NCBI GenBank assembly: GCA_036338695.1
Contig: JAYZBQ010000076.1
Span: forward strand, 32,001-96,000
Length of the DNA stretch: 64,000 nucleotides
Source of the DNA: Myxococcota bacterium
GTDB lineage: Bacteria; Myxococcota; UBA4151
Direction: 5' to 3'
A model generated the notes under the pieces. The model was given only the letters and a program-made list of their open reading frames with translations, had not been told where the DNA came from and did no database searches. This document shows positions 23,750-59,187 of this stretch, piece after piece; position 1 is the first letter of the stretch; each line of letters begins with the position of its first letter. The translations under genes and the position numbers were made by a program.

Positions 23750-23841
23750 CTCATTTCGCACGATCGACCATTGACCCCGTCGGGGCCAGCGGGAATAAGA
23801 GTGCGTCTAAGAACAATGAGCCTTCGCGACGAGGATTGTCG

Positions 23842-25122
23842 ATGAGCCAACTGATGAAACAGTTTTCTATTTCCTTTCTTGTACTCGCTGCGGCGAGTTG
23901 CACCAGTGAACCGATCACGAAGAGCTGGGTATTTGTCTCGAAGGCGCCCTCGGTTTCGACGCCCCTCGTGACCCAAGACCGCATCTTCTTCGGATCCGAC
24001 GTTGGGTTGGACGCGATCAACCGTCTGGGCGGCTTCGTTTGGCGCCTTGATCGACAAGGCATGAACGTCGTGGGCGGTCCTGCTGCCTACGAAGACATCG
24101 TCTTGTTCGGGTCGACCAACTCGCAGTTTTACGCCGCATCTTATGATGGCCGGATGGTGTGGGAGTACACGGCGGGCGCGCGCATCAAGTCCGATGCGTT
24201 GACCGACGGAGACTCGGTCATCTTCTCGAGTTACGACGGGCATGTGTACAAGATGGCGGTCGAAGACAAAAAGATGCAGTGGATCTTCCCGAGCGAAGCG
24301 GCTGAGGAGCTTCCGGGCCCGCCGACTCATCCAAAGGTCAAAGCCTACATCGCCGCGATGGCTGACTACTCCAAGAAGGTGGCTGAATGCGCCGCTCAGG
24401 CTGAGGCAGCTCAGGCGGAAGGCAAGGCGCCTGAGCAGCCGTGCGAAACGGGTGACGAGCCGGCTGCACCTTCGTCAGAGCAGGGCGCTGAGTGGGAGTG
24501 GCCGCCAGCCGATTTTGCATACTCCTCGCCCATGCGTGTTGGGAACTTGATCATCTTGGGGAACATGGACTGGAACGTCTATGCGCTGAACGCCGACACG
24601 GGCGAGCTGGTCTGGCGCACACGTCTTAATGGGACCGTGACGTCGAGCGCAGTAGCGGGCGACGGCGTGATCTACATCGGCAGCAACGGACGACTCGGTG
24701 GCAAGAGCCCAGAGGACGGACGGCTCTACGCACTCGACGCTAAGACCGGGAAAATCCTTAACAACTTCCAGGCGAAGAACGAGGTTAACTCTTCGGTGCG
24801 CGTCAACGGTGACTCGTTGTACTTCGGTGACGTCGCCGGGAACATGTACTGTCTGGACGCCAAGACGCTCAAAGAGAAGTGGTCGTTCAAAACCAACGGG
24901 CCGATCCGAGGGCGCCCTGCGATCTACAAGAATCTCGTCTTTATTGGTTCGGGCGCTGGCGACAACCAAATGTACGCGTTACGTCAGGACGACGGGAAGG
25001 TGTTTTGGAAGTACAAGACGGGCGGTAAAATCGAATCGGATCCTGTGATCAGTGGTGATGAGCTGTTCTTCACGAGCCATGACCGCAGGTTGTACGCCTT
25101 CAAGATTCGAAAGACGCCCTGA
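23842..25122 (+). CDS. PQQ-like beta-propeller lipoprotein (BamB-like)
   Basis: Lipobox LAAAS-C; repeated YAL.A.TG...W blades. Confidence 0.85.
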   Translation: MSQLMKQFSISFLVLAAASCTSEPITKSWVFVSKAPSVSTPLVTQDRIFFGSDVGLDAINRLGGFVWRLDRQGMNVVGGPAAYEDIVLFGSTNSQFYAASYDGRMVWEYTAGARIKSDALTDGDSVIFSSYDGHVYKMAVEDKKMQWIFPSEAAEELPGPPTHPKVKAYIAAMADYSKKVAECAAQAEAAQAEGKAPEQPCETGDEPAAPSSEQGAEWEWPPADFAYSSPMRVGNLIILGNMDWNVYALNADTGELVWRTRLNGTVTSSAVAGDGVIYIGSNGRLGGKSPEDGRLYALDAKTGKILNNFQAKNEVNSSVRVNGDSLYFGDVAGNMYCLDAKTLKEKWSFKTNGPIRGRPAIYKNLVFIGSGAGDNQMYALRQDDGKVFWKYKTGGKIESDPVISGDELFFTSHDRRLYAFKIRKTP

Positions 25123-25181: not shown

Positions 25182-25940
25182 GTGGATATTGCGACAGTCC
25201 TAGGAGCCCTCGTAGCGTTTGGCTTGGTCGGTGGCTCGATCGCCATGGGCGGCGGCACGGCCTTTATCGACCCAGCCTCCGCGATGATCGTGATCGGCGG
25301 CACGACCGGCGCGATCATGCTCGCGACCTCGATGGAGAAGTTTCAGGCGCTGGGTAAGGTCTTTAGCAAGGCGCTGACGGTGACGCCGGTGCCGATGGTT
25401 GAGACCGCCACCAACATGGTCGAATATGCGCAGATTGCGCGCCGAGAGGGCATGTTGAGCCTGGAGCAGGCGCTGGCGAGCGCCGACCCGTTCATGGCGA
25501 ACGGGATCCAGCTCGCCATCGATGGGATCGCGCCAGATGTCGTCGAGGACATCATGTACATCGATCTAGACCGGATGAAGGCGCGCCATAAGGCGGGCAA
25601 TGAGCTCATGAGCCTTGGCGCCACCTTCGCACCGGCGATGGGTTTGATTGGTACGCTCATCGGTTTGGTTCAGATGCTCCAAAATATGTCGGATCCGAAC
25701 ACCATCGGTCCTGCGATGGCGGTGGCTTTGCTCACGACCTTTTATGGCGCATTGCTCGCCAACCTCGTCTTTGTTCCCATCTCGAGTAAGCTTAAGATGC
25801 GCTCGACCGCTGAGATCGAATACCGCGAGATGATGATGGAGGGCGTGATGGCGATCGCCAAAGGCGAGAGCCCGCGTATGGTTGAGAAGAAGCTCAACGC
25901 CATGTTGCCGCCTGATGATCGTCTGTCGCTCTTTGACTGA
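25182..25940 (+). CDS. motA: Flagellar stator A subunit (PomA/MotP-like)
   Basis: Motifs ARREG.L.LE, APAMGLIGTLIGL, AVALLTTFYG. Confidence 0.95.
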   Translation: MDIATVLGALVAFGLVGGSIAMGGGTAFIDPASAMIVIGGTTGAIMLATSMEKFQALGKVFSKALTVTPVPMVETATNMVEYAQIARREGMLSLEQALASADPFMANGIQLAIDGIAPDVVEDIMYIDLDRMKARHKAGNELMSLGATFAPAMGLIGTLIGLVQMLQNMSDPNTIGPAMAVALLTTFYGALLANLVFVPISSKLKMRSTAEIEYREMMMEGVMAIAKGESPRMVEKKLNAMLPPDDRLSLFD

Positions 25941-26635
25941 TGGGTAAACGCCGAGCTCCCGAACCCGAAGAGCCCGAAGCGGACGGCTTCGTCGTCATGA
26001 TGACCTCGCTCTCGATGATCATGTTGGCGTTTTTTATCGTGCTCAACACGATGGCGACCATTACCCAGGTCAAGGTCATGAAGGCGCTCGATTCGTTGTA
26101 TGGATCGTTCGGCCCACTCAGCGGCGGAAAGTCCGTTGAGCCCGGCCCCCTTTCGATCAAAGAGAACGTCACCGAAGAGAAAAAGCCGGACAAGGAGAAG
26201 GTCTATAAGTCGATGCTCCAGCGCGCCGACCTTGACCCCTCGATCGAACTGCTTGAGCGCGACGACAGCTTCACGGTCGCCCTCCAGGACGATGTGCTGT
26301 TTGAAACGGGGCTCAATCAGATCAGCCCACGCATGTTTTCGTCCCTCAACGCAGTGGCTCAGGTCATCAAAGAGGTGAACATGCCGGTACGGATTGTTGG
26401 CTACTCGGACGCAACGCCTGCCGTCGACGGTGAGACCAATTTGATGCTTAGCCTCAAGCGCGCCGTGTTGGTGAAGAACTATCTGATGTATGCTGGGCGT
26501 GTTCCGGCCGACCTGATGATCGTCGAAGGGCGAGGCGAGGAGCTCTCGCCGCACTTCTTGTCAAAAGCCGGCGATGAGATTGCGGTGAGCGATGATCGGC
26601 GGCGGCGCGTGGAGTTGGTGTGGGGGCTCGACTAG
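25940..26635 (+). CDS. motB: MotB-like protein 1; OmpA-like domain intact, transmembrane Asp absent
   Basis: TM FVVMMTSLSMIMLAFFIVL; VGYSD...N..LS.KRA; RRVEL. Confidence 0.8.
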   Translation: MGKRRAPEPEEPEADGFVVMMTSLSMIMLAFFIVLNTMATITQVKVMKALDSLYGSFGPLSGGKSVEPGPLSIKENVTEEKKPDKEKVYKSMLQRADLDPSIELLERDDSFTVALQDDVLFETGLNQISPRMFSSLNAVAQVIKEVNMPVRIVGYSDATPAVDGETNLMLSLKRAVLVKNYLMYAGRVPADLMIVEGRGEELSPHFLSKAGDEIAVSDDRRRRVELVWGLD

Positions 26636-26638
26636 TCC

Positions 26639-27373
26639 ATGGGTGATAAGAAGAAGGGCGGCGGCGGTGATGACGGACCTGGGATCGATCCGAACGGCTG
26701 GATGATCACCTTCTCTGACCTGCTCACCTTGATGCTCACGTTCTTTGTGCTCCTGTTCTCAATGAGCAGTCTCGATGCGAAGTCCCTGAAAGAGCTGACC
26801 GAGACGGAGGCGATGTCAGGCGGCGATGGTGTGCTCGAGATCGGTCAGCCCGAGAAGGTTCAGGCGGTGGACGCCAAGGACAAGCCAACCGTCACCCCTC
26901 GAAAGATGGCCTCTGTCGCCGAGGATGTGGCGCAATATTTGCGTATGGTTGGGCGTGGCGTCTCCGACGAGCGGCGACGTCTCTTGGAGCAGCGGATTCG
27001 TGAGCGCGGGAAGCAAGAGAAGGTTGAGGTGACCTTTTTGCCGAACGGTGTGCAGATCGCCTTTGAAGGGGACGATGAGTTGATGGCCCAAGGGCAGATC
27101 AGTCGCGGCGCACAGGATCAGCTCCGCGTCGTTGGTGACGCCGCTGTCGATTCGGGAGCGCGCGTGCGCGTGGAGACGGAGGCTCGTGGCGATGACCTCA
27201 ACGCCTGGATCGCTGCCACGGAGCGCGCCTCAGCCATCAGCGAGTTTATACGCCGTCATAGCGGTATTGCGAAGAAGCGAAATCGGTTAGGGGTTGCACC
27301 AAAGCCTGCTGATGGGAGCGGGCGACGCGTCCGCATGGTGCTTGAGATGCCGGACGCAAAGGAGGAGCGATGA
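26639..27373 (+). CDS. motB: MotB-like protein 2; transmembrane Asp present, OmpA-like domain degenerate
   Basis: TM WMITFSDLLTLMLTFFVLLFSMS; no GHTD-like motif. Confidence 0.85.
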   Translation: MGDKKKGGGGDDGPGIDPNGWMITFSDLLTLMLTFFVLLFSMSSLDAKSLKELTETEAMSGGDGVLEIGQPEKVQAVDAKDKPTVTPRKMASVAEDVAQYLRMVGRGVSDERRRLLEQRIRERGKQEKVEVTFLPNGVQIAFEGDDELMAQGQISRGAQDQLRVVGDAAVDSGARVRVETEARGDDLNAWIAATERASAISEFIRRHSGIAKKRNRLGVAPKPADGSGRRVRMVLEMPDAKEER

Positions 27374-27876
27374 GCGAAGAAGAGCTGGAACAGCAGCCGT
27401 CAGGTGGTGGGAACAACAAAATTATCCTCATTTTGGTGAGCGTCAATATCGTGGCGGTGCTCGGCGTGTTGGTCTACCTGATCACTTCGCAAGGCGCTGC
27501 CCCCGCCGCCGTTGTGGTGGGCGGTGAGGCGATCGCCAAGCCGGCGCAAGAAGAGCCGGGCGCAGGCCCGCCGTGGAAGATGGACCCGCTGATCGTCAAC
27601 CTGCGGGTGCCGGAGGGTACGCGCTACTTGAAGGTGGCGCTCGAGTTTGAGCTGACGGGCGAGAAGTTCAAAGAGCTCGCTGAGGATCGCAAGGGGCGGA
27701 TCAAGGATCAAGTGATCGAGTTCCTAAGCGATCTAACGGTCGACGATGTGGTCGGCAGTGACAACAAGCAATACATCAAAGAGCGGCTCCTGACCCGGCT
27801 GAACCACAGCCTCGAAGGCGAGGCGGGCGGTCCGGTGTTTCGGCGCGTCTTCTTCCCTGAGTTTCTGGTGCAGTAG
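27370..27876 (+). CDS. fliL: Flagellar basal body-associated protein FliL
   Basis: Single TM helix; motifs IVNL, RYLK, F.EFLVQ. Confidence 0.9.
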   Translation: MSEEELEQQPSGGGNNKIILILVSVNIVAVLGVLVYLITSQGAAPAAVVVGGEAIAKPAQEEPGAGPPWKMDPLIVNLRVPEGTRYLKVALEFELTGEKFKELAEDRKGRIKDQVIEFLSDLTVDDVVGSDNKQYIKERLLTRLNHSLEGEAGGPVFRRVFFPEFLVQ

Positions 27877-29178: not shown

Positions 29179-30291
29179 ATGCTAACGCTCGTTTTTATCG
29201 CCTCGCTGGCGCAGCCGCAGCCGGGTCAGAAGCTGTTGCGTGCGGACCTTGTTCGCAGCCCAAAGGGCTCGAACTTGGTCCTCGAGTTCGCCAAACCGAT
29301 CAAGCGCACCAGCGTCCCCATCGTCCCCGCCGGTCGGCGCCTCGTGCTCCACCTGCCCGGTCCCGTGAGCACGCGGCTCGCAGGCCAGCGTCAAGGGATG
29401 GGCGCAGTCTCGTCGGTTACGGCGCGTCGCGACCGCGTGACGCTGCAGCTCAACCGGCTCGCAAGACCCTTCGCAGACCGAGCGATCGTTCGGGCTAAGG
29501 GCACGACCTGGCGTCTGAAAATGGCGGATCCGACGGTCGAGCGCGACCTCGCCGATATGTTGCTCGGGACCGCCAAAGTGAAAGAGCGTAAACCTTTTGA
29601 CGCGCTCACTGAGTCAGCTAAGCTCAGCGAAGCCGCGCAAGAGAAGGTGAACGCCGAAGAGGTCATCGCAGAAGAGCCAGCCAAAGCGGCAGCCGGCCTC
29701 GCGGCCGTCGCCGCCGCTGCGCGCGGTGAGGCGCCACCTGCTGCCCCCACGAATCCACAAACACCCGGCGCCGGCGCGCCGGCGCCCATTGAACCCTCGG
29801 GCGACCTCGGTTCCACTGTGCGCGTGGTCGGCGGGATCGGCCTGGTGCTTATCGGCCTGCTCGGTTGGGTGGCATGGCGCCGCCGGCAGACGCCGATGGA
29901 GGAAGCCTTTGGTCTCAGGGTCGTGTCACGGGCTAAACTCGACACCAAAAGCTCGGTCGCTGTGCTTGAGGTCGGCGGAGCCGTGCTGATCATCGGGCTG
30001 AGTGATCAAGGACCGAGGCTGCTCGCCCGCCTTGATGACGGTCGAACCATGGAGGACGACGACCAAGGAGCTCAAGAGGTCGAGCGGCTGCGCGCCCTGG
30101 TCGGGAAGAATCCGGCAGATCGCTTGGGCGCGTGGGTCACGGCAGCGCAGGGCGGTCGCCCCGAGCCGGCGCAATCGGCGGCGCAGCCTTTACCCGCTGA
30201 GCCGGTCGCTGTCTCGACCCCGGCAGGGCACAACGAGCGTGCGGACCTTCAGCGACGCTTAGCCGAGATCCGACGGGTATGCTCGGACTAA
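29179..30291 (+). CDS. fliO: FliO with a long N-terminal periplasmic extension
   Basis: Lies between fliN and fliP; TM followed by LRVVSR..LD.KSSVAVLEVGG..LIIG. Confidence 0.75.
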   Translation: MLTLVFIASLAQPQPGQKLLRADLVRSPKGSNLVLEFAKPIKRTSVPIVPAGRRLVLHLPGPVSTRLAGQRQGMGAVSSVTARRDRVTLQLNRLARPFADRAIVRAKGTTWRLKMADPTVERDLADMLLGTAKVKERKPFDALTESAKLSEAAQEKVNAEEVIAEEPAKAAAGLAAVAAAARGEAPPAAPTNPQTPGAGAPAPIEPSGDLGSTVRVVGGIGLVLIGLLGWVAWRRRQTPMEEAFGLRVVSRAKLDTKSSVAVLEVGGAVLIIGLSDQGPRLLARLDDGRTMEDDDQGAQEVERLRALVGKNPADRLGAWVTAAQGGRPEPAQSAAQPLPAEPVAVSTPAGHNERADLQRRLAEIRRVCSD

Positions 30292-47554: not shown

Positions 47555-47582
47555 TAAACAGCTGACCTGATCGGGTCGTTGT
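47555..47582 (+). promoter_or_regulatory. Putative sigma28 promoter of flagellin 1-fliD-fliS
   Basis: TAAA-N16-GTCGTTGT, the same form as before flgM. Confidence 0.55.
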
Positions 47583-47589
47583 CTGGGTC

Positions 47590-47633
47590 GGAGGGCAAGG
47601 ATGCCTTCCAGGCGGACACGGATGTCCACGGAG
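47590..47633 (+). promoter_or_regulatory. CsrA-binding hairpins in the flagellin 1 leader
   Basis: GGAGGGCA-AGGA-TGCCTTCC and GGACA-CGGA-TGTCC, then SD ACGGAG. Confidence 0.75.
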
Positions 47634-47641
47634 CCAACCCA

Positions 47642-48472
47642 ATGTCTTTAGTCGTCCACCATAACGTGGCGGCGCGCTTTGCCCGCATGCACCTGGCTCG
47701 AGCCCAGGATGCCATTCAAGGTAGCACGGACCGGATGAGCTCGGGGTACCGACTCAATCGAGCGGCAGACGACACCACCGCCTTTGCGGTCTCCATGCGC
47801 TTCGGTTCGGACTTGATTGGCCTTGAGACCGTCAACCGCAACGCCCGCAACGGCATGAACCTGATCAGCGCCATGGAAGGGACGGCTGGTGAGATCCTGC
47901 GCGTCCTGGACCGGATGCGTGAGTTGGCGACGAAAAACGCAACGGAGACGATGACCGCGACGGATCGCAGCGAAGCTCAGATCGAGTTTGCGGCGCTTCA
48001 AGAAGAGATTCAGCGCTTGGCTCAGACCACGCAGATGAACCGAGTCCAAGGTCTGGCGGTTTCGGACACCATGACCTTCCAAGTCGGCGCCGGTGGCGGC
48101 GCCGCCAACCAGGTCGTGCTGTCGATGCGCTCGATGACGCTTGCGGCGCTCTCGATCGGACCGGGCGACGCAGACATTATACTGATGAGCAACGCGCAGG
48201 GCGCGCTTGAGAGCATCGACGTCGCGCTTTCTCGCCTCAATACGCGCCGCTCGGAGATGGCGGCCACCTTCTCTCAGCTCAACTCCGCCTTTGACGTGAC
48301 CGCAGCGGATCGCGAAGCGCTCCTCAATACATTAAACGTGATTCGTGATACCGATTACGCAGAGGAGTCGACGCGACTGGCGCAGAATCAGATCCGCTCG
48401 CAAGCTGCGGTGAGCATTCTGAGCCAGGCGAATACGATCCCGCAGCTGGCGCTGCAGCTGCTGCAAGGATAG
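47642..48472 (+). CDS. fliC: Flagellin 1 (276 aa, divergent)
   Basis: Motifs SSGYRLNRAADD, RMRELA, IRDTDYAEE, LSQAN. Confidence 0.9.
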   Translation: MSLVVHHNVAARFARMHLARAQDAIQGSTDRMSSGYRLNRAADDTTAFAVSMRFGSDLIGLETVNRNARNGMNLISAMEGTAGEILRVLDRMRELATKNATETMTATDRSEAQIEFAALQEEIQRLAQTTQMNRVQGLAVSDTMTFQVGAGGGAANQVVLSMRSMTLAALSIGPGDADIILMSNAQGALESIDVALSRLNTRRSEMAATFSQLNSAFDVTAADREALLNTLNVIRDTDYAEESTRLAQNQIRSQAAVSILSQANTIPQLALQLLQG

Positions 48473-48482
48473 GGAGGCGAAG

Positions 48483-49826
48483 ATGGCTGGATTTAGTGTA
48501 GGTGGATTGGCGACGGGGCTTGATACCAAGACCATGATCGCCCAACTCCTTCAGGTCGAGCGCTCGGCGCAGATCGGCCCTAAGCGTCGTAAGGCTGAGG
48601 CAGATCAGCGCGGCGCCGCCATCAACGACCTGATCAACCTGATGAAAGAGGTCCGAACAGCCGCTGAGGGCGTCGACACCAACACCGAGGCTGCCGCCGT
48701 CACCGCCACCAGCGGCGACACCGACAAGTTTACGGTAACGGGCGATGGCAACGCGCTCCCCGGCAGCTATCAGCTCGCCATCGGTCAGCTCGCCCAGGGG
48801 CAGAAGAATCGGGTGACCCTCGGCACGAGCCTAACCGATTCTATCAACACCGGGACCTACACGATCCAAGTCGAGGGTGAGGACGCAGTCGATGTCGAGA
48901 TCGACGGCACCAACGACACTTTGTCGGGGTTCATCACGGCGATCAACTCAGCCGAGGCAGGGGTGACAGCCTCCACCATCTTTGACGGCAACAACTACAC
49001 CTTGGTGATCACCGCTGATGACACCGGCAAGGCCGTCAACTACACCTCGAGTGGGGGCGCCAAGTGGAGCAACATCGACGGCAGCAAGGCGGACTTCTCA
49101 GTCTACCAAGAAGCCCAAGATGCCATGTTTACGATCGATGGGATCGGGATCCAGAGCGACACCAACGAGGTGACCGACGCCATCACCGGGATCACGATCA
49201 ACTTGCTGGAGACCACCGCCTTTGACGAGATGGGGATGCCCACCGAAGAGATCAGCCTTGAGGTCAAAGCGGACAGTGAGAAGACCACAGAGAACGTCGA
49301 GGCGCTGACGGCGGCCATCGGCAAGGTCATGGCGAACCTTAAGTCGAACATGGCGTCCAGCGAGGACCGAGCCGGGATTCTCGCCTTTGACTCCACCGCC
49401 CGCATGCTGCGCGGCTCGATCTCCGATGCTTTGATCAATCGGCAAAGCGGCAACGACGGAACGTACAGCTCGCTGACGATGATCGGTATCGGGCAGGATC
49501 GCTATGGCAACATCTCCTTTGATAAGGATGAGTTCGCCGAGGCGCTCGCTAAGGATAAAGATGGCGTGCTGGGTCTGATTACGGGCGAGGACGGCCTCGC
49601 CGACCGGTTCAAAGAGATGGTTGACGACTACACCTTCTCGGACGGTTTCCTGACGATCCGCAAAACCATGTACTCGGATCGCTCGAGCGATATCTCAAAG
49701 TCGATCGAGCGTATGGAGGAGCGCGTCATCGCTTACGGCGACCGGCTCAAGCGCCAGTTCGCTAAGCTCGAGCAGATGGTCTCAGGGCTCAATCAACAGA
49801 GCTCCGCATTGAGCGGTCTGCGCTAG
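48483..49826 (+). CDS. fliD: Filament cap protein FliD
   Basis: Motifs GLATGLDT..I..L, AQDA...IDG, QF..LE. Confidence 0.93.
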   Translation: MAGFSVGGLATGLDTKTMIAQLLQVERSAQIGPKRRKAEADQRGAAINDLINLMKEVRTAAEGVDTNTEAAAVTATSGDTDKFTVTGDGNALPGSYQLAIGQLAQGQKNRVTLGTSLTDSINTGTYTIQVEGEDAVDVEIDGTNDTLSGFITAINSAEAGVTASTIFDGNNYTLVITADDTGKAVNYTSSGGAKWSNIDGSKADFSVYQEAQDAMFTIDGIGIQSDTNEVTDAITGITINLLETTAFDEMGMPTEEISLEVKADSEKTTENVEALTAAIGKVMANLKSNMASSEDRAGILAFDSTARMLRGSISDALINRQSGNDGTYSSLTMIGIGQDRYGNISFDKDEFAEALAKDKDGVLGLITGEDGLADRFKEMVDDYTFSDGFLTIRKTMYSDRSSDISKSIERMEERVIAYGDRLKRQFAKLEQMVSGLNQQSSALSGLR

Positions 49827-49837
49827 GAAGGCACACC

Positions 49838-50242
49838 ATGATCCCCGCCAAACGGAACCCGTACGCCAGCGCTCAGGTCAACTCGGCAAGCCCGGAGCAG
49901 ATCCTGGTGCTGCTGTATGACGCCGCTTTACGTGACCTCAAAGAGGCGATGGCGGCGCTGCAGGTGAACGATCGGTCGCGCAAGGCGAAGGCTTTGGATC
50001 ATGCGGTCAAGGTGGTCACCGAGCTCGCGAACAGCCTGCGACCGGACAAGTCACCTGAGATCGCTGAGAACCTCTCGAGTTTGTATGATTTTATGATCGA
50101 TCGGATGATTCGATCGAACGCTCAGAACCAAGACCTTGATCTGCAGGTCGTCTACAACTTGCTCGGCGAGCTGCGCTCAGCCTGGGTGGAGGCGATCCGG
50201 ATCAACCGAACACAGCGAAACCAAGGGGTGGCAGGAGCCTAA
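49838..50242 (+). CDS. fliS: Flagellin chaperone FliS
   Basis: Motifs ASPEQ.L.LLYD, IA.NL..LY.F, L..AW. Confidence 0.93.
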   Translation: MIPAKRNPYASAQVNSASPEQILVLLYDAALRDLKEAMAALQVNDRSRKAKALDHAVKVVTELANSLRPDKSPEIAENLSSLYDFMIDRMIRSNAQNQDLDLQVVYNLLGELRSAWVEAIRINRTQRNQGVAGA

Positions 50243-50440
50243 CCCCAAGCACCCTACACGCTGAGCAAGGATGCGAGGCGTTGACCCATCAAGGAGGATA
50301 TCGGTCATGTTGAACAGCACATAGGGGGCACCCCCCAGCGAGCCGAACCCAGCAAGGCTCACGACATAATCAGCTGGAAAAATAAATACTTTGAAACACC
50401 TGGGACGGCTCGAGCGAGCTCGAACAGGGACCCTTTACCC

Positions 50441-50460
50441 GGAGCTCAGGGACGAGCTCC
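50441..50460 (+). promoter_or_regulatory. CsrA-binding hairpin in the flagellin 2 leader
   Basis: GGAGCTC-AGGGAC-GAGCTCC. Confidence 0.7.
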
Positions 50461-50519
50461 TTCCACTCGGCGGCGCTTCTTTCCAGAGCTCGCCGGCCAT
50501 GCCAATCAAGGAGGATACC

Positions 50520-51347
50520 ATGGCCATCACTGTACGCAGTAACCCGCAATCCATTTTCTCGCAGACTCGCTTGACGCGCACCAGCCGCGCTCTTGAGAAG
50601 ACGTTCAACCGTCTCTCGAGCGGCAGCCGCATCAACACGGCGGCCGATGACGCCGCAGGCTTAGCGATCTCGACTCGGCTCGAGCACCGCATCAAGGGGC
50701 AAGCCGCCGCCAAGCAAAACGCGCAAGAGGGGATCAGCTTTATCCAGACGCTCGAGGGCGGCGTGGAGCAGATCCTCGATATGTTGCATCGTCTGCGTGA
50801 GCTGGGTGTGCGCGCCGCTAACGAGACCCTGACCGACACTGATCGCGACGCCTTAGACCTTGAGTTTCAGCAGCTGCTGACCGAGGTGGACCGCGTCGGG
50901 TTGTCTACCTCGTTCAATGGTGGTCCGAACCTGCAAGGCTCTCTTGAGATGACCTTCCAGGTCGGCTTCTCAAACACCACCAACGACCGAGTCTCGCTGA
51001 CTCAAACCTCTGGGCTTTCGCTCGCGGCGCTTCAGCTCAGCGGGCACGACGTGCAGTCGATCAGCAACGCTGCCAGCGCCATCGGTGACCTGAGCTTGGC
51101 GCTGAGCCACCTCAACGCGTACCGTTCGCGTCTGGGCGCCACGCAAAACCGCCTCGAGCGTTCCATCTCGAACCTTGAAGCCGATATCGAAAACGCAACG
51201 GCGGCCAACAGCCGCATCCGTGACGTCGACTTCGCAGAGGAGACCAGCCAGCTGACCAGGCTCCAGATCTTGAGCCAGAGCGGAACCGCTGTGTTGACGC
51301 AGGCTAACGCCATGCCGCAGGCGGCGCTCGCCTTGCTCGGCGGCTGA
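50520..51347 (+). CDS. fliC: Flagellin 2 (275 aa)
   Basis: SD AAGGAGG; motifs LSSGSRINTAADDAAG, LGATQNRL, SRIRDVDFA. Confidence 0.96.
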   Translation: MAITVRSNPQSIFSQTRLTRTSRALEKTFNRLSSGSRINTAADDAAGLAISTRLEHRIKGQAAAKQNAQEGISFIQTLEGGVEQILDMLHRLRELGVRAANETLTDTDRDALDLEFQQLLTEVDRVGLSTSFNGGPNLQGSLEMTFQVGFSNTTNDRVSLTQTSGLSLAALQLSGHDVQSISNAASAIGDLSLALSHLNAYRSRLGATQNRLERSISNLEADIENATAANSRIRDVDFAEETSQLTRLQILSQSGTAVLTQANAMPQAALALLGG

Positions 51348-51742
51348 TCGGACGGCTGACTATGAACAAGATCACGATCGCCAATAGAGGCTCACCCGGG
51401 CGCGCGCCGCCCCCTCGACGCCGAGGTCGCAAGCGGAGCACCATCCGGTGGCTCTGGTCTCGGCGGCGAGGTCACCCGGTCATCCTGACCTGGGCTCGCT
51501 GCAAGACAAGGGCAGGACCCTTTAGCGGGCACATCAGGGCGCCGAACATGAGCGTTCGTAACGACATCCCCAGGGAGCTTGCCGATTCGGCGCACGCTCC
51601 GATCATCAGGAATCGTCATGGACCGTCTGAATCTCGGGCAGGGCCGACTCCCGGTCGCGCACCGCCCAAATCGACGGGCCCTCCTTAGCCGGAGGAGCTC
51701 CCGTCTGGGAGTCATCAGGAAGGACAACAATTCAAATCAATC

Positions 51743-51758
51743 GGGACAAGGACGTCCC
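51743..51758 (+). promoter_or_regulatory. CsrA-binding hairpin in the flagellin 3 leader
   Basis: GGGAC-AAGGAC-GTCCC. Confidence 0.7.
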
Positions 51759-51811
51759 ATTCGCCGGCTGGCGACCCAGGTCACCAGCCACTAGCCATCA
51801 AGGAGGATATC

Positions 51812-52645
51812 ATGGCTATTGTAGTAAGAAGTAATCCGCAGTCGGTCTTTGCACAGGTCCGTCTGAATCGTAGCTCGAACGCCTTACAAGACACCTTTCA
51901 GAAGTTGTCGACGGGCTCTCGGATCAACAACGCTGGTGACGACGCCGCTGGGCTCGCTATCTCGACGCTGCTCGAGCACCGGATCCGCGGTCAAGGCGCG
52001 GCGAAGCAGAACGCGCTCGAAGGCATCAGCATGATCCAGACCGCCGAAGGGGGCGTGGAGCAGGTTCGCTCGATGCTCGACCGGATGCGAGAGCTGGCGG
52101 TTCGCTCAGGCAACGAGACGCTCAGCGCCTCGGATCGTTCGAACGCGGACTTGGAGTTTCAGCAGCTCAAGCAAGAGATCACGCGTATCGGCAACACGAC
52201 CTCGTACAACGGCGTCAACCTGCTTAATGCGTCACAGACGCTGACGTTCCAGGTCGGCTTTGCCAACACCACGAACAATCAGATCGCGGTGAGCTTGACC
52301 GGTAACATGATCGCATCAGGCGCTGACAGCTTCCTGTCGCTGAGCGGTGACGTCGGTAGCGCGGCTGCTGCAGCGTCGATGTTGGCTAAGATCGACAGCG
52401 CGCTGAGTCGGCTCAATGGTTATCGATCGAAGCTCGGCTCGGTGCAGAACCGGCTCGAGCGAGCGATCTCGAACCTCGAGGCCGACATCGAGAACGCAAC
52501 GGCGTCGAATAGCCGGATTCGGGACGTGGACTTTGCAGAGGAGACATCGAAGATGACGCGTCTGCAGATCCTTGTCCAAAGTGGCACGGCCGTGCTGACG
52601 CAGGCCAACGCCAGCCCACAAGCGGCGCTCTCCCTGCTCGGGTAG
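51812..52645 (+). CDS. fliC: Flagellin 3 (277 aa)
   Basis: Conserved flagellin N- and C-terminal motifs. Confidence 0.96.
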   Translation: MAIVVRSNPQSVFAQVRLNRSSNALQDTFQKLSTGSRINNAGDDAAGLAISTLLEHRIRGQGAAKQNALEGISMIQTAEGGVEQVRSMLDRMRELAVRSGNETLSASDRSNADLEFQQLKQEITRIGNTTSYNGVNLLNASQTLTFQVGFANTTNNQIAVSLTGNMIASGADSFLSLSGDVGSAAAAASMLAKIDSALSRLNGYRSKLGSVQNRLERAISNLEADIENATASNSRIRDVDFAEETSKMTRLQILVQSGTAVLTQANASPQAALSLLG

Positions 52646-52666
52646 CGCAGCACGCGGGATCAGCCA

Positions 52667-52709
52667 GGAGGGTGCTCGGGGGTTACCTCGAGCACCCTTT
52701 TGGTTTTTT
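52667..52709 (+). terminator. Rho-independent terminator after flagellin 3
   Basis: Stem AGGGTGCTCG...CGAGCACCCT followed by a T-tract. Confidence 0.85.
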
Positions 52710-52778
52710 AAATTTACAGCAAATCAAATGGCTTAGCGTTGCATCGGCTCAAAATGGCCGTGTTTTTAGGGCGTTGCC

Positions 52779-52807
52779 TTGACTTTGTTCATTCATGCCC
52801 CCACACT
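52779..52807 (+). promoter_or_regulatory. Putative sigma70-type promoter of flagellin 4
   Basis: TTGACT-N17-CACACT, with the same -10 hexamer as before rpoN. Confidence 0.45.
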
Positions 52808-52956
52808 CTCAATGAAGGTCCACCTGTCCCCGGGCGACTTAGGAGGTAGTTTTAACATCATGGTTCCGCGCTGGCGAGCGCCGAATCAAGCCGGGCACAC
52901 GCACCCGTTGAGCTTCAGCCCTTGGACCCTTGAAGCACAGCAAAACCATACAGAAC

Positions 52957-52977
52957 GCTCTCAAAGGATATGAGAGC
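52957..52977 (+). promoter_or_regulatory. CsrA-binding hairpin in the flagellin 4 leader
   Basis: GCTCTCA-AAGGATA-TGAGAGC. Confidence 0.7.
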
Positions 52978-52998
52978 TAAGCCATCCAAGGAGGAATC

Positions 52999-53832
52999 AT
53001 GGCACTTGTAGTACGTAGTAACGTTCAGTCTGTCTTCGCTCAAAACCGCCTCAACAGAAGCCAGGCGACCTTCGAAGACTCCCTCGCAAAACTTGCCTCG
53101 GGTAGCCGCATCAATAAAGCGGCTGATGATGCTGCTGGTATGGCGGTCTCGACCACTCTTGAGCACCGCATCAAAGCGCAGTCGGCTGCAAAGCAGAACG
53201 CTCAGGAAGCGATCAGTATGATCCAGACCGCAGAAGGCGGCGTGGAGCAGGTGCGCGGTATGATCGACCGTATGCGTGAACTCGCCGTGCGTGCGAGCAA
53301 CGAAACGCTCAGCGCATCGGATCGCACGAATGCGAACCTCGAGTTCACTCAGCTTCAAGCGGAGATCAACCGCATCGGCAACACGACGTCGTACAACGGC
53401 ACGGACTTGCTGGCAGCGACCGCAGAGCTGACCTTCCAGGTCGGCATGGAAAACAGCGCCAACCAGCGGATCATGGTGACCATGACCGGTAACATGCTGG
53501 CGACTGGCACTTCGGCTGCGCTGGCGCTGACCGGCGGCGTCGACACGACGGCGGGTGCGACGTCGATGCTTGCCAAGATCGACGCGGCGCTGAGCACCCT
53601 GAATGGGTACCGCTCGAAGCTCGGTTCGGTCCAAAACCGCCTGGAGCGATCGATCTCGAACATCGAGGCAGACATCGAGAACGCCACCGCAGCGAACAGC
53701 CGGATCCGTGACGTCGATTTTGCGTCCGAAACGGCGAACTTCACTCGGTCTCAGATCCTTATTCAGTCGGGTACGGCGATTTTGGCTCAGGCGAACAGCT
53801 CGCCGCAGGCTGCGCTGTCCCTGCTGGGTTAG
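52999..53832 (+). CDS. fliC: Flagellin 4 (277 aa)
   Basis: Motifs SGSRINKAADDAAG and SRIRDVDFA; followed by flaG. Confidence 0.96.
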   Translation: MALVVRSNVQSVFAQNRLNRSQATFEDSLAKLASGSRINKAADDAAGMAVSTTLEHRIKAQSAAKQNAQEAISMIQTAEGGVEQVRGMIDRMRELAVRASNETLSASDRTNANLEFTQLQAEINRIGNTTSYNGTDLLAATAELTFQVGMENSANQRIMVTMTGNMLATGTSAALALTGGVDTTAGATSMLAKIDAALSTLNGYRSKLGSVQNRLERSISNIEADIENATAANSRIRDVDFASETANFTRSQILIQSGTAILAQANSSPQAALSLLG

Positions 53833-53863
53833 TGGTCGACGCGTAGCGATTAGGAGGTAAACA

Positions 53864-54241
53864 ATGGCTGATCCTGCAAGCCTCCAAGCTACACTGATGC
53901 CGAGTCGTGCTCCGCGCCTTGGGCAGCCTGGTGCTGCCGAGGCCAAGAGCGCACGGGTAGCGGCGCCGCAGCCGGTTGCACTTGAGGCAGCCAGCAGCGG
54001 GGCGCTAGGACCAGTGCAGTTGGAGCGTCTGAAGGTCGAAGTGGCTGAGGTGCAAGCCCAGCTGGACCGTCACGGGGTAGACATCGAGATGGAACCCCAA
54101 GATGGTCTGGATCCTGCGATCATCCGCTTGGTTGATCGTGAGACGGGCGAGACCGTCCGGCAGATCCCTCCCAAGGAGTGGCTCGAGATGAGGCGCAACT
54201 TGATGGAAGGAAAAGGTCTGGTGGTCTCCACCATCGCCTAA
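53864..54241 (+). CDS. flaG: FlaG-family protein
   Basis: I.LVDRETGETVRQIPP.E.L...G. Confidence 0.88.
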   Translation: MADPASLQATLMPSRAPRLGQPGAAEAKSARVAAPQPVALEAASSGALGPVQLERLKVEVAEVQAQLDRHGVDIEMEPQDGLDPAIIRLVDRETGETVRQIPPKEWLEMRRNLMEGKGLVVSTIA

Positions 54242-54259
54242 CCGACCAGGGCGAAAATG

Positions 54260-54297
54260 GGCTCAGGGGTGCCTTCGGCGCCCCTGGGTCTTTTTTT
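54260..54297 (+). terminator. Rho-independent terminator after flaG
   Basis: Stem CAGGGGTGCC-ttc-GGCGCCCCTG followed by a T7 tract. Confidence 0.85.
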
Positions 54298-54320
54298 GTG
54301 GGTGTGCCACAGAACACATC

Positions 54321-54650
54321 ATGAGCGAGACCATCCCCAAATCGCAGTATCTTCAGCGCTTACTCGAGCTCAGCGACGCCATGATCGCTGCGCTAGAAGC
54401 TGGCGACGTCGACATGGCAGGCGCGGTGTACGATGAACGTGTTCGCTTCATCGAGACGATGCGCGCCGATGATGAACCGGTTGAGCCCGATGTGATCGAG
54501 CGCGTGCTCGCTCGAGACCAGGCGGTGATCGCTGCAGCGCTCAAGCGGCGGCACGATATGGTGGGCTCGGCCGCTCAACTCAACGCGGTCAGTCGGTACT
54601 CAAGCCAGCTGCCGGGGTCCGCTGACGGAGGCGATTGGGGCAGCGGCTAA
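54321..54650 (+). CDS. FliT-like helical protein
   Basis: LL.LS..M..A...GD.......ER pattern; flagellar context. Confidence 0.55.
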   Translation: MSETIPKSQYLQRLLELSDAMIAALEAGDVDMAGAVYDERVRFIETMRADDEPVEPDVIERVLARDQAVIAAALKRRHDMVGSAAQLNAVSRYSSQLPGSADGGDWGSG

Positions 54651-54666
54651 AGGCCGCCCTACGGGC

Positions 54667-57099
54667 GTGTCGATAGATGAAGTGGAGGTCCCCATGGAAG
54701 TCTACTTCGACCAGCAACTGATCGGCGAGACGGCGAGCGGCTCGTCGCTCACCTCCCTCATCGGGGGCGACCGGCTTGAGCTGACGGTTTGCACGCGCGT
54801 CGACGGCGTTGATGATACCCTCGACGCGGTTTTGGCGCAGAGCAACTTGACCGGGAAGCGCCTCGATCTCTTCAGCTTTGATGGTTGGCTTGCCGAGTCG
54901 GCATCGCTGGTGACGGAGTTGATTGAGCGGATTGGTCAGAGCAGTACGGTCATCGCCGGTATGACCAGCCAGCGTGATCCGGTGGAATTGCTCGATGAGC
55001 TGATGCTCAAGCCGAAAGAGATCCTCAGCGAACTCGAAGGGGTCGCCGAACATCTTGGTCCAGAGCTGTCCGCAGCGATCGATGAGTTAAAACTCCTGAG
55101 CGTCGCTGCTGAGTCGGTTCTAGTAGCCGCTGTTCGCGACAAGGATTTCATCCGGGTCGCCGACGCGTTACGACTTGAGTGGAGCATCTTTTTGCGTGGG
55201 CTCGTCAGCTTTCTTGAGCCCGAGGTTGCCTTCGAGATACCTGCTGCTGAGCCCAGCTCTGGACTCTCACCCGAGGCACTGTATGCGCTTAATCTTGAGG
55301 CGCTTGAGGAGCGCTTTCCTCTTTTGTGCTCACCCTTGAAGGCGGCTTGGGAAGAGCGTGACGAAGAGCGTTATCGTTTTGAGGAGGGACCATCAGGGTT
55401 GCGCGCGCCGCGCATCAACAATCAGCGGATGTGGTCGGTGATGACCCCCTTGGCTGATGCTGAGCACATCGCCGCAGAGCATCGAGGCGATGCGAAGTAT
55501 GCGGTATGGGATTGTGCGGTCTCATGGGGGCTCTCGGGCGAGTTAGCGCATCAGATTTTAGCGGGTGAGATGGAGGGACGACCACAGATTTTTGTTCGAC
55601 CTGACCTTCAAGCTTTTGCCGCTGAGCTGCACTGCTGTGACTGGCGACCCCTACTCGAGGCGGATCACACGATTCTGTGCACGACGGTGAGCGACTACCG
55701 CTGGACGCTCCGGAACTGCTTTGTACACAATGACCGGATTCGTCGTTTGAGCAGTCCGAATCTTCTCGCGGTCGACCCTGAGCTGTACGTAGAGCTCCAC
55801 GAACAGAGCGGACATACGGAACTCTCCTTGATCATGGAGGATTTTACCGGGATCAGTCGCGGGCGCGGTTGGGTCATCAATGAGCTTCAGAACGTCGCTG
55901 TGCTGCTTGACCAGCCCGACGCTCGCGAGCTTAAAGATATGCGTAAAGGCATGCCGGGTCTGCTGGTCGCTCCGGGACCCAGCCTGAAGAAGAATCTGCA
56001 TTTGATCCCTGAGTTCGCTAAAAAAGGCGTGGTGGTCGGGGTCAGCCATGTTTTGGGTAAGTTGCAAGATATGGGCGTGGATCCCGAGCTGACGGTCGCT
56101 ATTGAAGGGTATGACATCTCGAATCACTTTGAAAACAGCGACCCGACGCGTACCTCCCTGTTCTTGCACGAGTCTACAAACCCCAACGTCGTCAATCTGC
56201 CGGTCGCACAGCGCTGGGTGGTGCACGATGGCGGCATCGGCGCACGGCTGCGCCCGGACGAGAATCTTCGCTCCGTCAACATGGTCGCGTCGAGCTGTAC
56301 GCACGTGGTCATGTGGGCGCTCAAGGAGCTCGGCTGCGACCCCATCGTCTTTGTGGGCCTGGACCTCGCGCTTGAGGACGGGCGCCAATACGCCGACGGC
56401 TGTGAGGGCACGACACCCACACAGCAAACCCTCGAGGTCGACGGATACTTTGGCGAAAAGGTTCAGACCTTATCGCAGTACAACGTCTTTCGCGACCAGT
56501 TCGAGCTCTGTATCTCGCATCCGCTCTTCTCGGACCGGCGTTACATCAACGCCACCGAGGGCGGAGCGCGCATTGACGGAACCGATCAGATGTCGCTCGC
56601 TGAGGTTATCGAGTCGCTCGCAGAGCGCCCGGATAAAGAATTGCATGGACCCCTCGTCGCTGAAGAGCATCAGCTGCCGTCCATCGATTGGTCGCTCGCC
56701 GCGCAAACGATCGAGACCAGCGCATCGGACCTCGAAGAAGCCGAGGCGAGCGCACGTCGCGGATTGAAATCCGCTAAAGAGGCGATCACCTGCTTTAAAG
56801 CTGGCGATGAAGCGGGCGTCTCGCGCCGAGGGCGAGCCGCCTCCAAGCGAGCCAAGCGCGCCAACGAGGTGCTGACCCACGATCACATCCTCAACGGGCG
56901 CTGGATGGCTGAACAAAACAAGCGCTCTCAGCGCCTCGAGCGTGAGGTCCGCTACCTCGGCGACGACCCCAAGGCAGTGATGCGCCATAACCTCAACCAC
57001 TATCAGCAGCTCCTCGCCTCCATCGAAGAGGCGACGCGCAGCTTGCGACCGCATTATGAAGAGGCGGCGAAACGAATCCGGGAGCGGCACAATGTTTGA
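54667..57099 (+). CDS. maf: Motility-associated factor (Maf/DUF115) flagellin glycosyltransferase with an extra N-terminal domain
   Basis: Motifs VAPGPSL.KN, GCDPIVFVGLDLA, YINATEGGARI.G. Confidence 0.85.
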   Translation: MSIDEVEVPMEVYFDQQLIGETASGSSLTSLIGGDRLELTVCTRVDGVDDTLDAVLAQSNLTGKRLDLFSFDGWLAESASLVTELIERIGQSSTVIAGMTSQRDPVELLDELMLKPKEILSELEGVAEHLGPELSAAIDELKLLSVAAESVLVAAVRDKDFIRVADALRLEWSIFLRGLVSFLEPEVAFEIPAAEPSSGLSPEALYALNLEALEERFPLLCSPLKAAWEERDEERYRFEEGPSGLRAPRINNQRMWSVMTPLADAEHIAAEHRGDAKYAVWDCAVSWGLSGELAHQILAGEMEGRPQIFVRPDLQAFAAELHCCDWRPLLEADHTILCTTVSDYRWTLRNCFVHNDRIRRLSSPNLLAVDPELYVELHEQSGHTELSLIMEDFTGISRGRGWVINELQNVAVLLDQPDARELKDMRKGMPGLLVAPGPSLKKNLHLIPEFAKKGVVVGVSHVLGKLQDMGVDPELTVAIEGYDISNHFENSDPTRTSLFLHESTNPNVVNLPVAQRWVVHDGGIGARLRPDENLRSVNMVASSCTHVVMWALKELGCDPIVFVGLDLALEDGRQYADGCEGTTPTQQTLEVDGYFGEKVQTLSQYNVFRDQFELCISHPLFSDRRYINATEGGARIDGTDQMSLAEVIESLAERPDKELHGPLVAEEHQLPSIDWSLAAQTIETSASDLEEAEASARRGLKSAKEAITCFKAGDEAGVSRRGRAASKRAKRANEVLTHDHILNGRWMAEQNKRSQRLEREVRYLGDDPKAVMRHNLNHYQQLLASIEEATRSLRPHYEEAAKRIRERHNV

Positions 57100-58060
57100 C
57101 CAGGCTTCACTGCTCATCACAGGCGGAACGGGTAGCCTAGGGAACGCGCTGACCCGCTATCTACTCGACCACACGAATTTGCGCCGCGTGATCATCTACA
57201 GTCGCGACGAGCTCAAGCAGCATGAGATGCGCCAGCGCTTCGGCAACGACCCAAGATTACGGTTTTTTATCGGCAACGTGCGCGACTTAGATCGGCTCCG
57301 ACGCGCTTTTACAGGGGTTGATTACGTCATCCATGCGGCGGCGCTCAAGCAGGTCCCAGCCGCTGAATACAACCCTTTTGAGTGCATCAAGACCAACGTT
57401 TTGGGTGGGCAGAACGTGATCGAGGCGGCGCTCGACTGTGGCGTCAAGAAGTTGGTCGCTCTATCGACGGACAAAGCGTGCAATCCCATCAATTTGTACG
57501 GCGCGACCAAGCTGTGCTCCGATAAGCTTTTTGTCGCGGGTAACGCCTACGCAGGCGGTTCGGGCACCCAGTTTGCGGTGGTCCGCTACGGCAACGTCTC
57601 GGGCTCGCGCGGCTCGGTGGTTCCCTTGTTCAAACGATTCGCTGAGACGGGCGGCGAGGTCACCATCACCGATGAGCGGATGACGCGCTTTTGGATCACC
57701 ATCGAAACGGCGGTTCAGCTGGTGATGGACAGCTTTGAGCACATGGTCGGCGGGGAAATCTTTGTGCCCAAGATCCCCTCTATGCGGGTTGTGGATCTGG
57801 CACAGGCGCTGTGCCCTGGGCAGCCAATTCGGGTCATCGGGATTCGCCCGGGCGAGAAGCTGCACGAGGCGATGATCGGCGAAGACGACAGCCGCTCGGT
57901 GATCGATATGGGCGCCCGCTACGCGATCTTGCCGGAATTTGAGTGGTACAATGCGCGCCGGGATCGAGGCACGCCGGTGCCCGACGGGTTTAGCTACACC
58001 TCGGATCGCAACGAGGACTGGCTGACGGTCGAGCAGCTCAAGGAGTTGTCGGCGCGATGA
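57092..58060 (+). CDS. pseB: UDP-GlcNAc 4,6-dehydratase (inverting)
   Basis: Motifs TGGTGS.G, YSRDELKQ, HAAALKQVPAAEYNP, YGATKL, VRYGNV.GSRGSV. Confidence 0.93.
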   Translation: MFDQASLLITGGTGSLGNALTRYLLDHTNLRRVIIYSRDELKQHEMRQRFGNDPRLRFFIGNVRDLDRLRRAFTGVDYVIHAAALKQVPAAEYNPFECIKTNVLGGQNVIEAALDCGVKKLVALSTDKACNPINLYGATKLCSDKLFVAGNAYAGGSGTQFAVVRYGNVSGSRGSVVPLFKRFAETGGEVTITDERMTRFWITIETAVQLVMDSFEHMVGGEIFVPKIPSMRVVDLAQALCPGQPIRVIGIRPGEKLHEAMIGEDDSRSVIDMGARYAILPEFEWYNARRDRGTPVPDGFSYTSDRNEDWLTVEQLKELSAR

Positions 58061-59187
58061 TCCCTTATGGACGGCATGAGCTTAGACCCGAAGACCGCGA
58101 CGCAGTGCTGCGCGTCTTGGAGTCCGGTTGGCTGACCGGCGGACCGGCGGTGCAGGAATTTGAGGCGGCGCTGTCGAGCGTCTGCCAGGCGCCGCATGTC
58201 GTGAGTTGCTCGAACGGAACCACGGCGCTGCATCTGATCGCTGAGGCCATCGCGGCGCCCCCAGGCGCCTGGTGGATCTGTACGCCGAGCACCTTCGTCG
58301 CAAGCATTCAGGCAGGTATCTACGCAGGCTATCGCCCCGTTTTTGTCGACGCGGACCCGCAGACCGGACTGATCGATCTCGAGTCGTTGCGCGGCTTGCT
58401 CGAGGCGGCACGCGATCATCAGGCGGTGGTCGCTGCCGTGGTCGCTGTGGACCTGAACGGTCACTGCGTACCGCTCGAGGACCTCGTCGATTTGCTGGAT
58501 ATCTACGCCGTGCCCATCGTGCGAGACGCTGCGCACAGCTTGGGCGCTTTGGACGCCGGCGGGATACCGGTCGGCGGGAGCGATCGGGTGCTGGCGACGG
58601 CGCTGAGCTTTCATCCGGTCAAGCTGATCGCTGCAGCAGAGGGCGGCGCCATCGTCGGGCACGATGACGAGTTCATGGCGCGACTGCGCCACCTAAGGAG
58701 TCACGCGATGGTGCGCCAGCCTGGAACACCGAGTGATTATCGCGTCGACGCCGTCGGGTATAATTATCGCCTCTCTGACCTTCACGCCGCGCTCGGGCAG
58801 AGCCAACTGGCCAGGATCGATGAAAAGCTGGCGCGCCGGCGCGCGCTGGCGCGCCAGTATCAAACATTGCTCGCCGATGTGGACGGGGTGGAGGTCGTGT
58901 CACCATCACCTCAGACCCAGTCGGCGTGGCACCTGATGAGTGTCCTCGTCGACCCTGAGCGTCGCTGGCAGCTGATCGCTAGCTTGCGTGCGAAAGGCGT
59001 AGGCGCAGCCCATCATTACCCGGCTGCGCACCTTCAGCCGGTGTATCAAGAGTTGCTGCCAGGGTTGGAGGGTACCTGCCCTGGCGCCGAGCGTTACTGT
59101 GCGTCTCAGGTGACGTTGCCGCTCTTTGAAGAGCTGACCGAAGAACAGGTGACCGAGGTCACTGACACGCTCAAAGCGCTCCTATAA
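58057..59187 (+). CDS. pseC: DegT/DnrJ-family sugar aminotransferase (PseC-like)
   Basis: Motifs IPYGR, SNGT.ALH, DAAHSLG, SFHPVK, GYNYRL.D. Confidence 0.85.
   Translation: MIPYGRHELRPEDRDAVLRVLESGWLTGGPAVQEFEAALSSVCQAPHVVSCSNGTTALHLIAEAIAAPPGAWWICTPSTFVASIQAGIYAGYRPVFVDADPQTGLIDLESLRGLLEAARDHQAVVAAVVAVDLNGHCVPLEDLVDLLDIYAVPIVRDAAHSLGALDAGGIPVGGSDRVLATALSFHPVKLIAAAEGGAIVGHDDEFMARLRHLRSHAMVRQPGTPSDYRVDAVGYNYRLSDLHAALGQSQLARIDEKLARRRALARQYQTLLADVDGVEVVSPSPQTQSAWHLMSVLVDPERRWQLIASLRAKGVGAAHHYPAAHLQPVYQELLPGLEGTCPGAERYCASQVTLPLFEELTEEQVTEVTDTLKALL

Follow-up and report, generated by a model that had tools for sequence, protein, structure and literature searches.

A conserved pairing of an aspartate-less MotB with an aspartate-bearing MotB in an apparently undescribed flagellar stator variant

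A flagellar gene cluster whose closest relatives carry Myxococcota labels contains a single motA followed by two unlike motB genes. The product of the first (MotB1) has a serine at the position of the essential aspartate of the membrane helix, while the second (MotB2) retains the Asp. This arrangement is a real, conserved and apparently undescribed variant of the flagellar stator. With slightly more confidence than doubt, we infer that the three proteins form one flagellar stator MotA5:MotB1:MotB2 with a single ion-binding Asp; the sequences, folds, selection, linkage and distribution are seen directly, and the complex, its stoichiometry, its ion and its stepping are read from them. The open full-text literature yielded no description of an Asp-less MotB family or of a heterodimeric flagellar stator.

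The window (i.e. the whole stretch of 64,000 nucleotides that was analysed) carries motA and the two motB-like genes at positions 25182-27373, just where the earlier note had placed them (Table 1). The order is motA, motB1, motB2, fliL, fliM, fliN, fliO, fliP, fliQ, fliR, flhB, flhA and flhF, all on the forward strand; fliL and fliO were assigned by Pfam and the remaining flagellar genes were named from their translations. The MotA-family A subunit thus sits in a flagellar gene cluster, and FliG is present in the genome. The stop codon of motA and the ATG of motB1 overlap in the sequence TGATG, motB2 begins 3 nt past the motB1 stop, and its own stop codon shares the sequence ATGA with the start of fliL. 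Such overlaps suggest that translation is coupled.

Table 1. Features of the motA-motB1-motB2 locus, with positions in the window.
Feature	Position	Strand	Description or basis
motA	25182..25940	+	252 aa, PomA/MotP-like
motB1	25940..26635	+	231 aa, Asp-less MotB paralogue
MotB1 membrane helix, residues 16-38	25985..26053	+	AlphaFold2 model, alignment
Ser23 codon TCG, at the essential-Asp position	26006..26008	+	sequence
MotB1 predicted plug helix, residues 43-56	26066..26107	+	Pfam, AlphaFold2 model
MotB1 OmpA-like wall-binding motif G154-Y-S-D157 ... R174	26399..26461	+	Pfam, alignment
motB2	26639..27373	+	244 aa, Asp-bearing
Asp27 codon GAC	26717..26719	+	sequence; T24, T30 and T34 kept as well
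MotB2 degenerate wall-binding motif, residues 175-197	27161..27229	+	Pfam, model, alignment
fliL	27370..27876	+	Pfam; first downstream flagellar gene

Some other features of the region were noted. At 23836-25122 there is a gene for a PQQ/BamB-like beta-propeller protein that carries a long acidic insertion; it has the same orientation as motA and ends 59 bases before it. FliO (29179-30291) is unusually long at 370 aa, with about 200 additional N-terminal residues preceding the Pfam FliO domain (230-300). Several flagellin-like genes (at 47579, about 50391, 51812 and 52999) lie within 47579-59187, followed by a gene for an 810-aa protein and two putative flagellin-glycosylation sugar-enzyme genes, all named from translations only. 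RNA contigs from two seawater/salt-marsh runs span motA and its flanks without motB1 or motB2, and are uninformative.

The membrane segment of MotB1 reads FVVMMTSLSMIMLAFFIVLN, compared with WMITFSDLLTLMLTFFVLLF in MotB2. There is no acid anywhere within the MotB1 helix, in agreement with the earlier note; Asp15 (25982-25984) lies just ahead of it on the cytoplasmic side. The Ser23 codon is three base changes from the GAC of MotB2, and the Asp is absent in all 12 close MotB1 orthologues that were aligned, so its loss is not an assembly error. Counting the register from the Asp position, M20, S23, M26 and A30 of MotB1 take the positions of PomB T21, D24, S27 and C31, where MotB2 has T24, D27, T30 and T34. 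These PomB residues handle Na+ according to the available portions of PMC10374538 and PMC11725901. Since the polar positions neighbouring the Asp (equivalent to T21 and C31) are gone too, the MotB1 helix looks non-conducting, rather than being a neutral ion site.

In other respects MotB1 resembles a MotB protein. Pfam finds MotB_plug (26.7 bits, against a cut-off of 24) and OmpA (40.8 bits), and the AlphaFold2 model (mean pLDDT 73.9) has the membrane and plug helices at residues 16-38 and 43-56. The periplasmic part has an OmpA-like/MotB fold (Foldseek: PomB 3wpw, E 2e-9; also 2zvy). In OmpA-like domains an Asp/Arg pair binds peptidoglycan, and the canonical motif that had been claimed for MotB1 is indeed retained (G154-Y-S-D157 and R174). 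Judged by its sequence, MotB1 is a MotB paralogue and not a canonical ion-conducting MotB.

MotB2 has its transmembrane Asp, as had also been claimed, and its membrane helix and plug match MotB and PomB entries of the PDB. Pfam gives MotB_plug at 58.1 bits and no OmpA match. The claimed loss of the wall-binding motif is confirmed, with some refinement. The G-H-T-D sequence and any Pfam OmpA domain are absent, but the OmpA-like fold is retained in the AlphaFold2 model (mean pLDDT 78.2; Foldseek 6jfw E 5e-7, 3wpw E 3e-6), as are R196 and, in a shortened loop, Asp185/186. Among 23 orthologues, 22 have R or K at the position of R196. Given the retained arginine and the loop aspartates, lack of the motif does not prove lack of peptidoglycan binding, and MotB2 may still bind the wall. 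One MotB2 orthologue (P0022, on a single short contig) has Val at the Asp position (1/23), which is probably a sequencing error.

The MotA of the window keeps P151, G154, T158, L183, T185, T186 and N194, with the same numbering as Vibrio PomA, for which residue roles are given in the available parts of PMC10374538 and PMC11725901. Each of the 31 motA genes at B1-B2 loci has the T158/T185/T186 triad and N194. Judged from the triad, Na+ is probably the coupling ion, although this is not diagnostic; a proton-driven stator, that of R. sphaeroides, also keeps T158/T186 (PMC11725901, as far as its available text goes), so Na+ coupling is not certain. The same source reports, in the part available, that PomA N194D suppresses PomB D24N. 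Replacement of the lost Asp by an acid in MotA was considered and rejected, as TM3 and TM4 have no added, compensating acid and N194 is kept in 31/31 of these motA genes.

The Asp-less helix is a property of a family. A profile built from 12 close MotB1 homologues was searched against 1.84 billion cluster representatives (clusters at 50% identity), and the best 150 hits were taken together with the query; 6 of the 151 rows were dropped (fragments, or membrane segment missing or unaligned), leaving 145. Among these best-scoring representatives 117 of 145 lack the Asp, mostly having S (53), A (53) or T (8). The equivalent of PomB T21 is L in 61 and M in 46 of the 117, that of C31 (or T) is A in 93, and the Trp position of Asp-bearing MotB proteins is F in 73. 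The wall-binding G-x-x-D and R are kept in 89 of 108 full-length Asp-less representatives among the best hits. Members are labelled Desulfobacterales, Deltaproteobacteria, Nitrospinae/Nitrospirota or Pseudomonadota, and the B1 genes are currently annotated 'MotB', 'OmpA family protein' or 'hypothetical'. We note two further features that are atypical of the Asp-bearing rows, i.e. an Asp two residues ahead of the helix (59/117) and, towards the periplasmic end of the helix, an Asn 13 residues past the Asp position (95/117; Asn36 of MotB1, at 26045-26047). Plasmids gave no match to a class III B1, and viral contigs none to the B1 pattern.

The motB1 gene is under purifying selection. Compared with two genomes of the same genus (G001 and G002), motB1 has dN 0.10 with dS 1.98 and dN 0.13 with dS 2.38, close to the values for motA in the same two comparisons (0.047 and 1.36; 0.11 and 1.96). 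The resulting dN/dS is about 0.05, a rough ratio as dS is near saturation. Helix and plug are the least-changing part of motB1, with dN 0.009 and 0.063 where the OmpA domain has 0.12-0.13; a helix sitting in the MotA pore would be expected to show such constraint. Retention of the Asp by MotB1 orthologues, and relaxed selection with a dN/dS near 1, had been named in advance as telling against a functional Asp-less subunit; neither is found. A single branch (SH-aLRT 99) separates the 40 B1 rows from all others in a quick 98-row tree, and a second one (SH-aLRT 89) sets apart the 40 B2 rows; the remainder comprises 12 MotBs that occur singly and 6 copies belonging to two-Asp tandems. The tree is unrooted; it fits a single old duplication with both copies retained.

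The B1 gene is closely linked to an Asp-bearing neighbour. At least 120 metagenome stretches matched a DNA pattern written for the B1 helix; 80 of those listed had flanks and 40 did not, and a MotB-like open reading frame was found in 73 of the 80, 7 being dropped. This set was picked with a B1-shaped pattern, so counts of B1 residues in it are circular and only the neighbour counts escape this. Among the matches listed, a second motB lies directly downstream of B1 in 57 of 73 loci, and all 57 of these carry the Asp. The remaining 16 comprise 15 that end within 200 bp and one that breaks off mid-gene into unrelated sequence. The sequence identity of B1 and B2 is about 20% on average. The proposed pairing of an Asp-less B with an Asp-bearing B is borne out as tight linkage; an obligate heterodimer is what we infer. 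A correlation of the B1 and B2 distance matrices (r 0.85) was discarded as evidence, since shared descent yields the same. At one locus (L178, G030:C13) a motA is followed by two motB genes that both have Asp and wall motif, and these lie outside the B1 and B2 branches.

Complementary loss of the wall motif is less general. It was scored in 54 complete pairs of less than 95% identity, i.e. the listed metagenome loci, six genome loci and the window. The motif is present in B1 only in 14 pairs, in both proteins in 15, in B2 only in 8 and in neither in 17, so that an Asp-less first copy with a motif-less second copy, which the earlier note had expected to co-vary, is rejected as a universal rule. 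For the 34 pairs that follow a motA the corresponding numbers are 14, 15, 4 and 1, and in the four 'B2 only' cases B1 departs from the motif by a single residue. The 20 pairs without an adjacent motA have the motif in neither protein (16) or in B2 only (4), yet the B1 helix is kept; thus the helix, and not the anchor, is the constant part of B1. Two of these loci were read, giving the order fliM, DUF6468, an MgtE_N-like gene, (cheY,) cheZ, B1 and B2, and the nearest atlas clusters, obtained for one class III B1, are from Pseudomonadota. In these pairs (L108:15-4349, L082:100-4328 and 18 similar loci) B1 is mostly unnamed or 'hypothetical'. The constant feature is an Asp-less helix beside an Asp-bearing one, and the division of anchoring is a feature of particular lineages.

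One such lineage is found in the Myxococcota, where B1 is patchy. Just 8 of 250 genomes score above 184 bits; the next score is 155, and six of the following matches carry the Asp on inspection. The unpublished genome G195, listed in this search, supports none of the claims made here. In those 8 genomes and that of the window B1 always has the wall motif and B2 never does (9/9), so that complementary loss stands for the Myxococcota genomes with B1. Three of these, G031, G066 and G071, are 92-94% complete and encode flagellin and FliG; searches of them found neither a further full-length motA nor a further motB. Note that the genomes are incomplete and that two share a genus. As only this trio of genes was found there and B2 is motif-less, no homodimer would have both Asp and motif. 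That argument is weakened by the 17 of 54 pairs that lack the motif altogether, so that it may be dispensable for anchoring.

The window genome has a second motA-motB-motB locus outside the window (L013:6068-8556, G000:C48), in which both motB genes carry the Asp. The OmpA domain of the first is degenerate and that of the second canonical, and this locus may be another, independent B pair with one anchor. Tandem motB matches were seen in G001-G005 as well.

Comparison with known motors places the locus among flagellar stators. The window MotA matches PomA5PomB2 and MotA5MotB2 structures (Vibrio 8BRD/8BRI/8ZYV; 6YSF, 6YSL, 6YKM) at E 1e-58 to 1e-25 and shares PomA residues P151 to T186 listed above, and each B protein combines a single membrane helix with a plug segment and an OmpA-like fold, the whole being encoded in a flagellar operon. 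However, the known complexes contain a B homodimer with two Asp, whereas the window has two unlike B genes per motA. In one product the Asp is gone together with the remaining polar ligand positions, and in this lineage the Asp-bearing product lacks the wall motif. The nearest described case is the motA-motB1-motB2 set of Aquifex aeolicus (PMC4525482, available in part), which is Na+-driven and likewise has two motB genes whose products differ greatly in their periplasmic parts. There the membrane segments are 97% identical, from which both have the Asp, and each is functional alone as an E. coli chimera; in the present pairs B1 and B2 share about 20% identity and B1 has no Asp. In Myxococcus xanthus, AglR5:AglQ:AglS is a 5:2 ion-driven motor with a predicted heterodimeric axle (PMC11761067, from the accessible text), but it belongs to the TolQ/TolR family, drives gliding rather than flagellar motility, and is itself a prediction. 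Finally, an Asp-less B helix can assemble with the A ring, as PomB D24N does normally (structure RMSD 0.3 Å; PMC11725901, in the part available). The engineered PomB D24N, MotB D32 and ExbD D25N mutants are non-conducting homodimers, in contrast to a natural Asp-less family kept by selection beside an Asp-bearing partner.

In the mechanism that we favour, MotB2 would be the sole carrier of the ion-binding Asp, with ions passing only at Asp27, while the second position within the MotA pore would be taken by MotB1 as a non-conducting axle helix with its plug. In the window lineage MotB1 would also supply the peptidoglycan anchor, as MotB2 has lost the canonical motif. Current models of 5:2 motors have ions binding alternately at two equivalent Asp residues, which predicts ten 36-degree steps per turn (10.64898/2026.04.14.718414, PMC9389320, PMC10374538, PMC11725901, in the portions available). 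A MotA ring driven at one Asp would advance by five 72-degree cycles per turn, or by unequal paired sub-steps, rather than by ten equal 36-degree steps, and MotB1 would act as a passive pawl during the rotation.

Wherever the flanks left room, B1 was not seen without an Asp-bearing partner, which speaks for the one-Asp stator; so do the strong constraint on its helix and plug, the loss of the Asp as a family trait with an old B1/B2 split, and the retention of the helix where the wall motif is lost. The predicted AglQ:AglS axle offers a precedent for unlike B subunits. Against it, the published models require alternation at two Asp residues, and a working one-Asp unit was not found in the open full-text literature. 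Mixed dimers could be poisoned, as suggested by the dominant-negative D25N mutant of the paralogous ExbD (10.1101/2022.09.26.509584, available in part), and the MotA sequences offer no compensating acid. The separately functional membrane segments of Aquifex also count against it, and the window genome has its second stator locus. Moreover, 23 of the 54 pairs have a B2 that combines Asp with wall motif and could work alone. This last point is equally an argument for MotB1 as a brake or dosage subunit, where MotA5:MotB2(2) would be the working motor and silent MotA5:B1:B2 or MotA5:B1(2) units would limit ion leak, torque or stator number. Such a role agrees with the two-Asp models and the ExbD mutant and would account for the conserved helix and plug of MotB1. 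However, a constitutive inhibitor co-made via overlapping start and stop codons between motA and motB would silence many units, and in G031, G066 and G071 the sole Asp-bearing B has no wall motif; we regard a brake as rather unlikely.

MotB1 might instead be an accessory anchor outside the MotA pore. It would tether an ordinary MotA5:MotB2(2) to the wall by binding either FliL or the periplasmic part of a MotB2 dimer, in the manner of polar-motor stator scaffolds. This would suit the complementary motif losses seen in 14 of the 34 pairs that follow a motA and in all the Myxococcota genomes with B1, the wall-binding residues kept by most full-length Asp-less representatives, and fliL directly downstream of motB2. 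Yet the B1 of 25 of the 54 pairs keeps its helix without having the wall motif (4 of them by a single residue), and the MotB helix pattern (L24, F31, F32) and plug helix exceed what a plain membrane anchor needs, so this seems improbable. That motB1 is a decaying duplicate with a functionless loss of Asp is scarcely credible. The second stator locus of the window genome could cover for such a loss, but the dN/dS contradicts decay, reading frames are intact in over 100 clusters defined at 50% identity, and B1 forms one old branch. Returning to the one-Asp stator, we suggest tentatively, and at a little less than an even chance, that an obligate single-Asp MotA5:B1:B2 unit without two-Asp alternation could constitute a widespread, undescribed class of motor. 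It would have been present since an old duplication in Myxococcota, Desulfobacterales, Nitrospinae/Nitrospirota-labelled bacteria and Pseudomonadota, with the window lineage splitting conduction and anchoring between its two B chains.

The two-Asp symmetry of stators is hard to test, as a homodimer cannot be mutated on a single chain. If MotB1 is a brake, it would be an unrecognised and widely conserved regulator of the stator. In a natural B1/B2 pair each chain can be tagged or changed separately, and this would reveal whether one ion site turns MotA.
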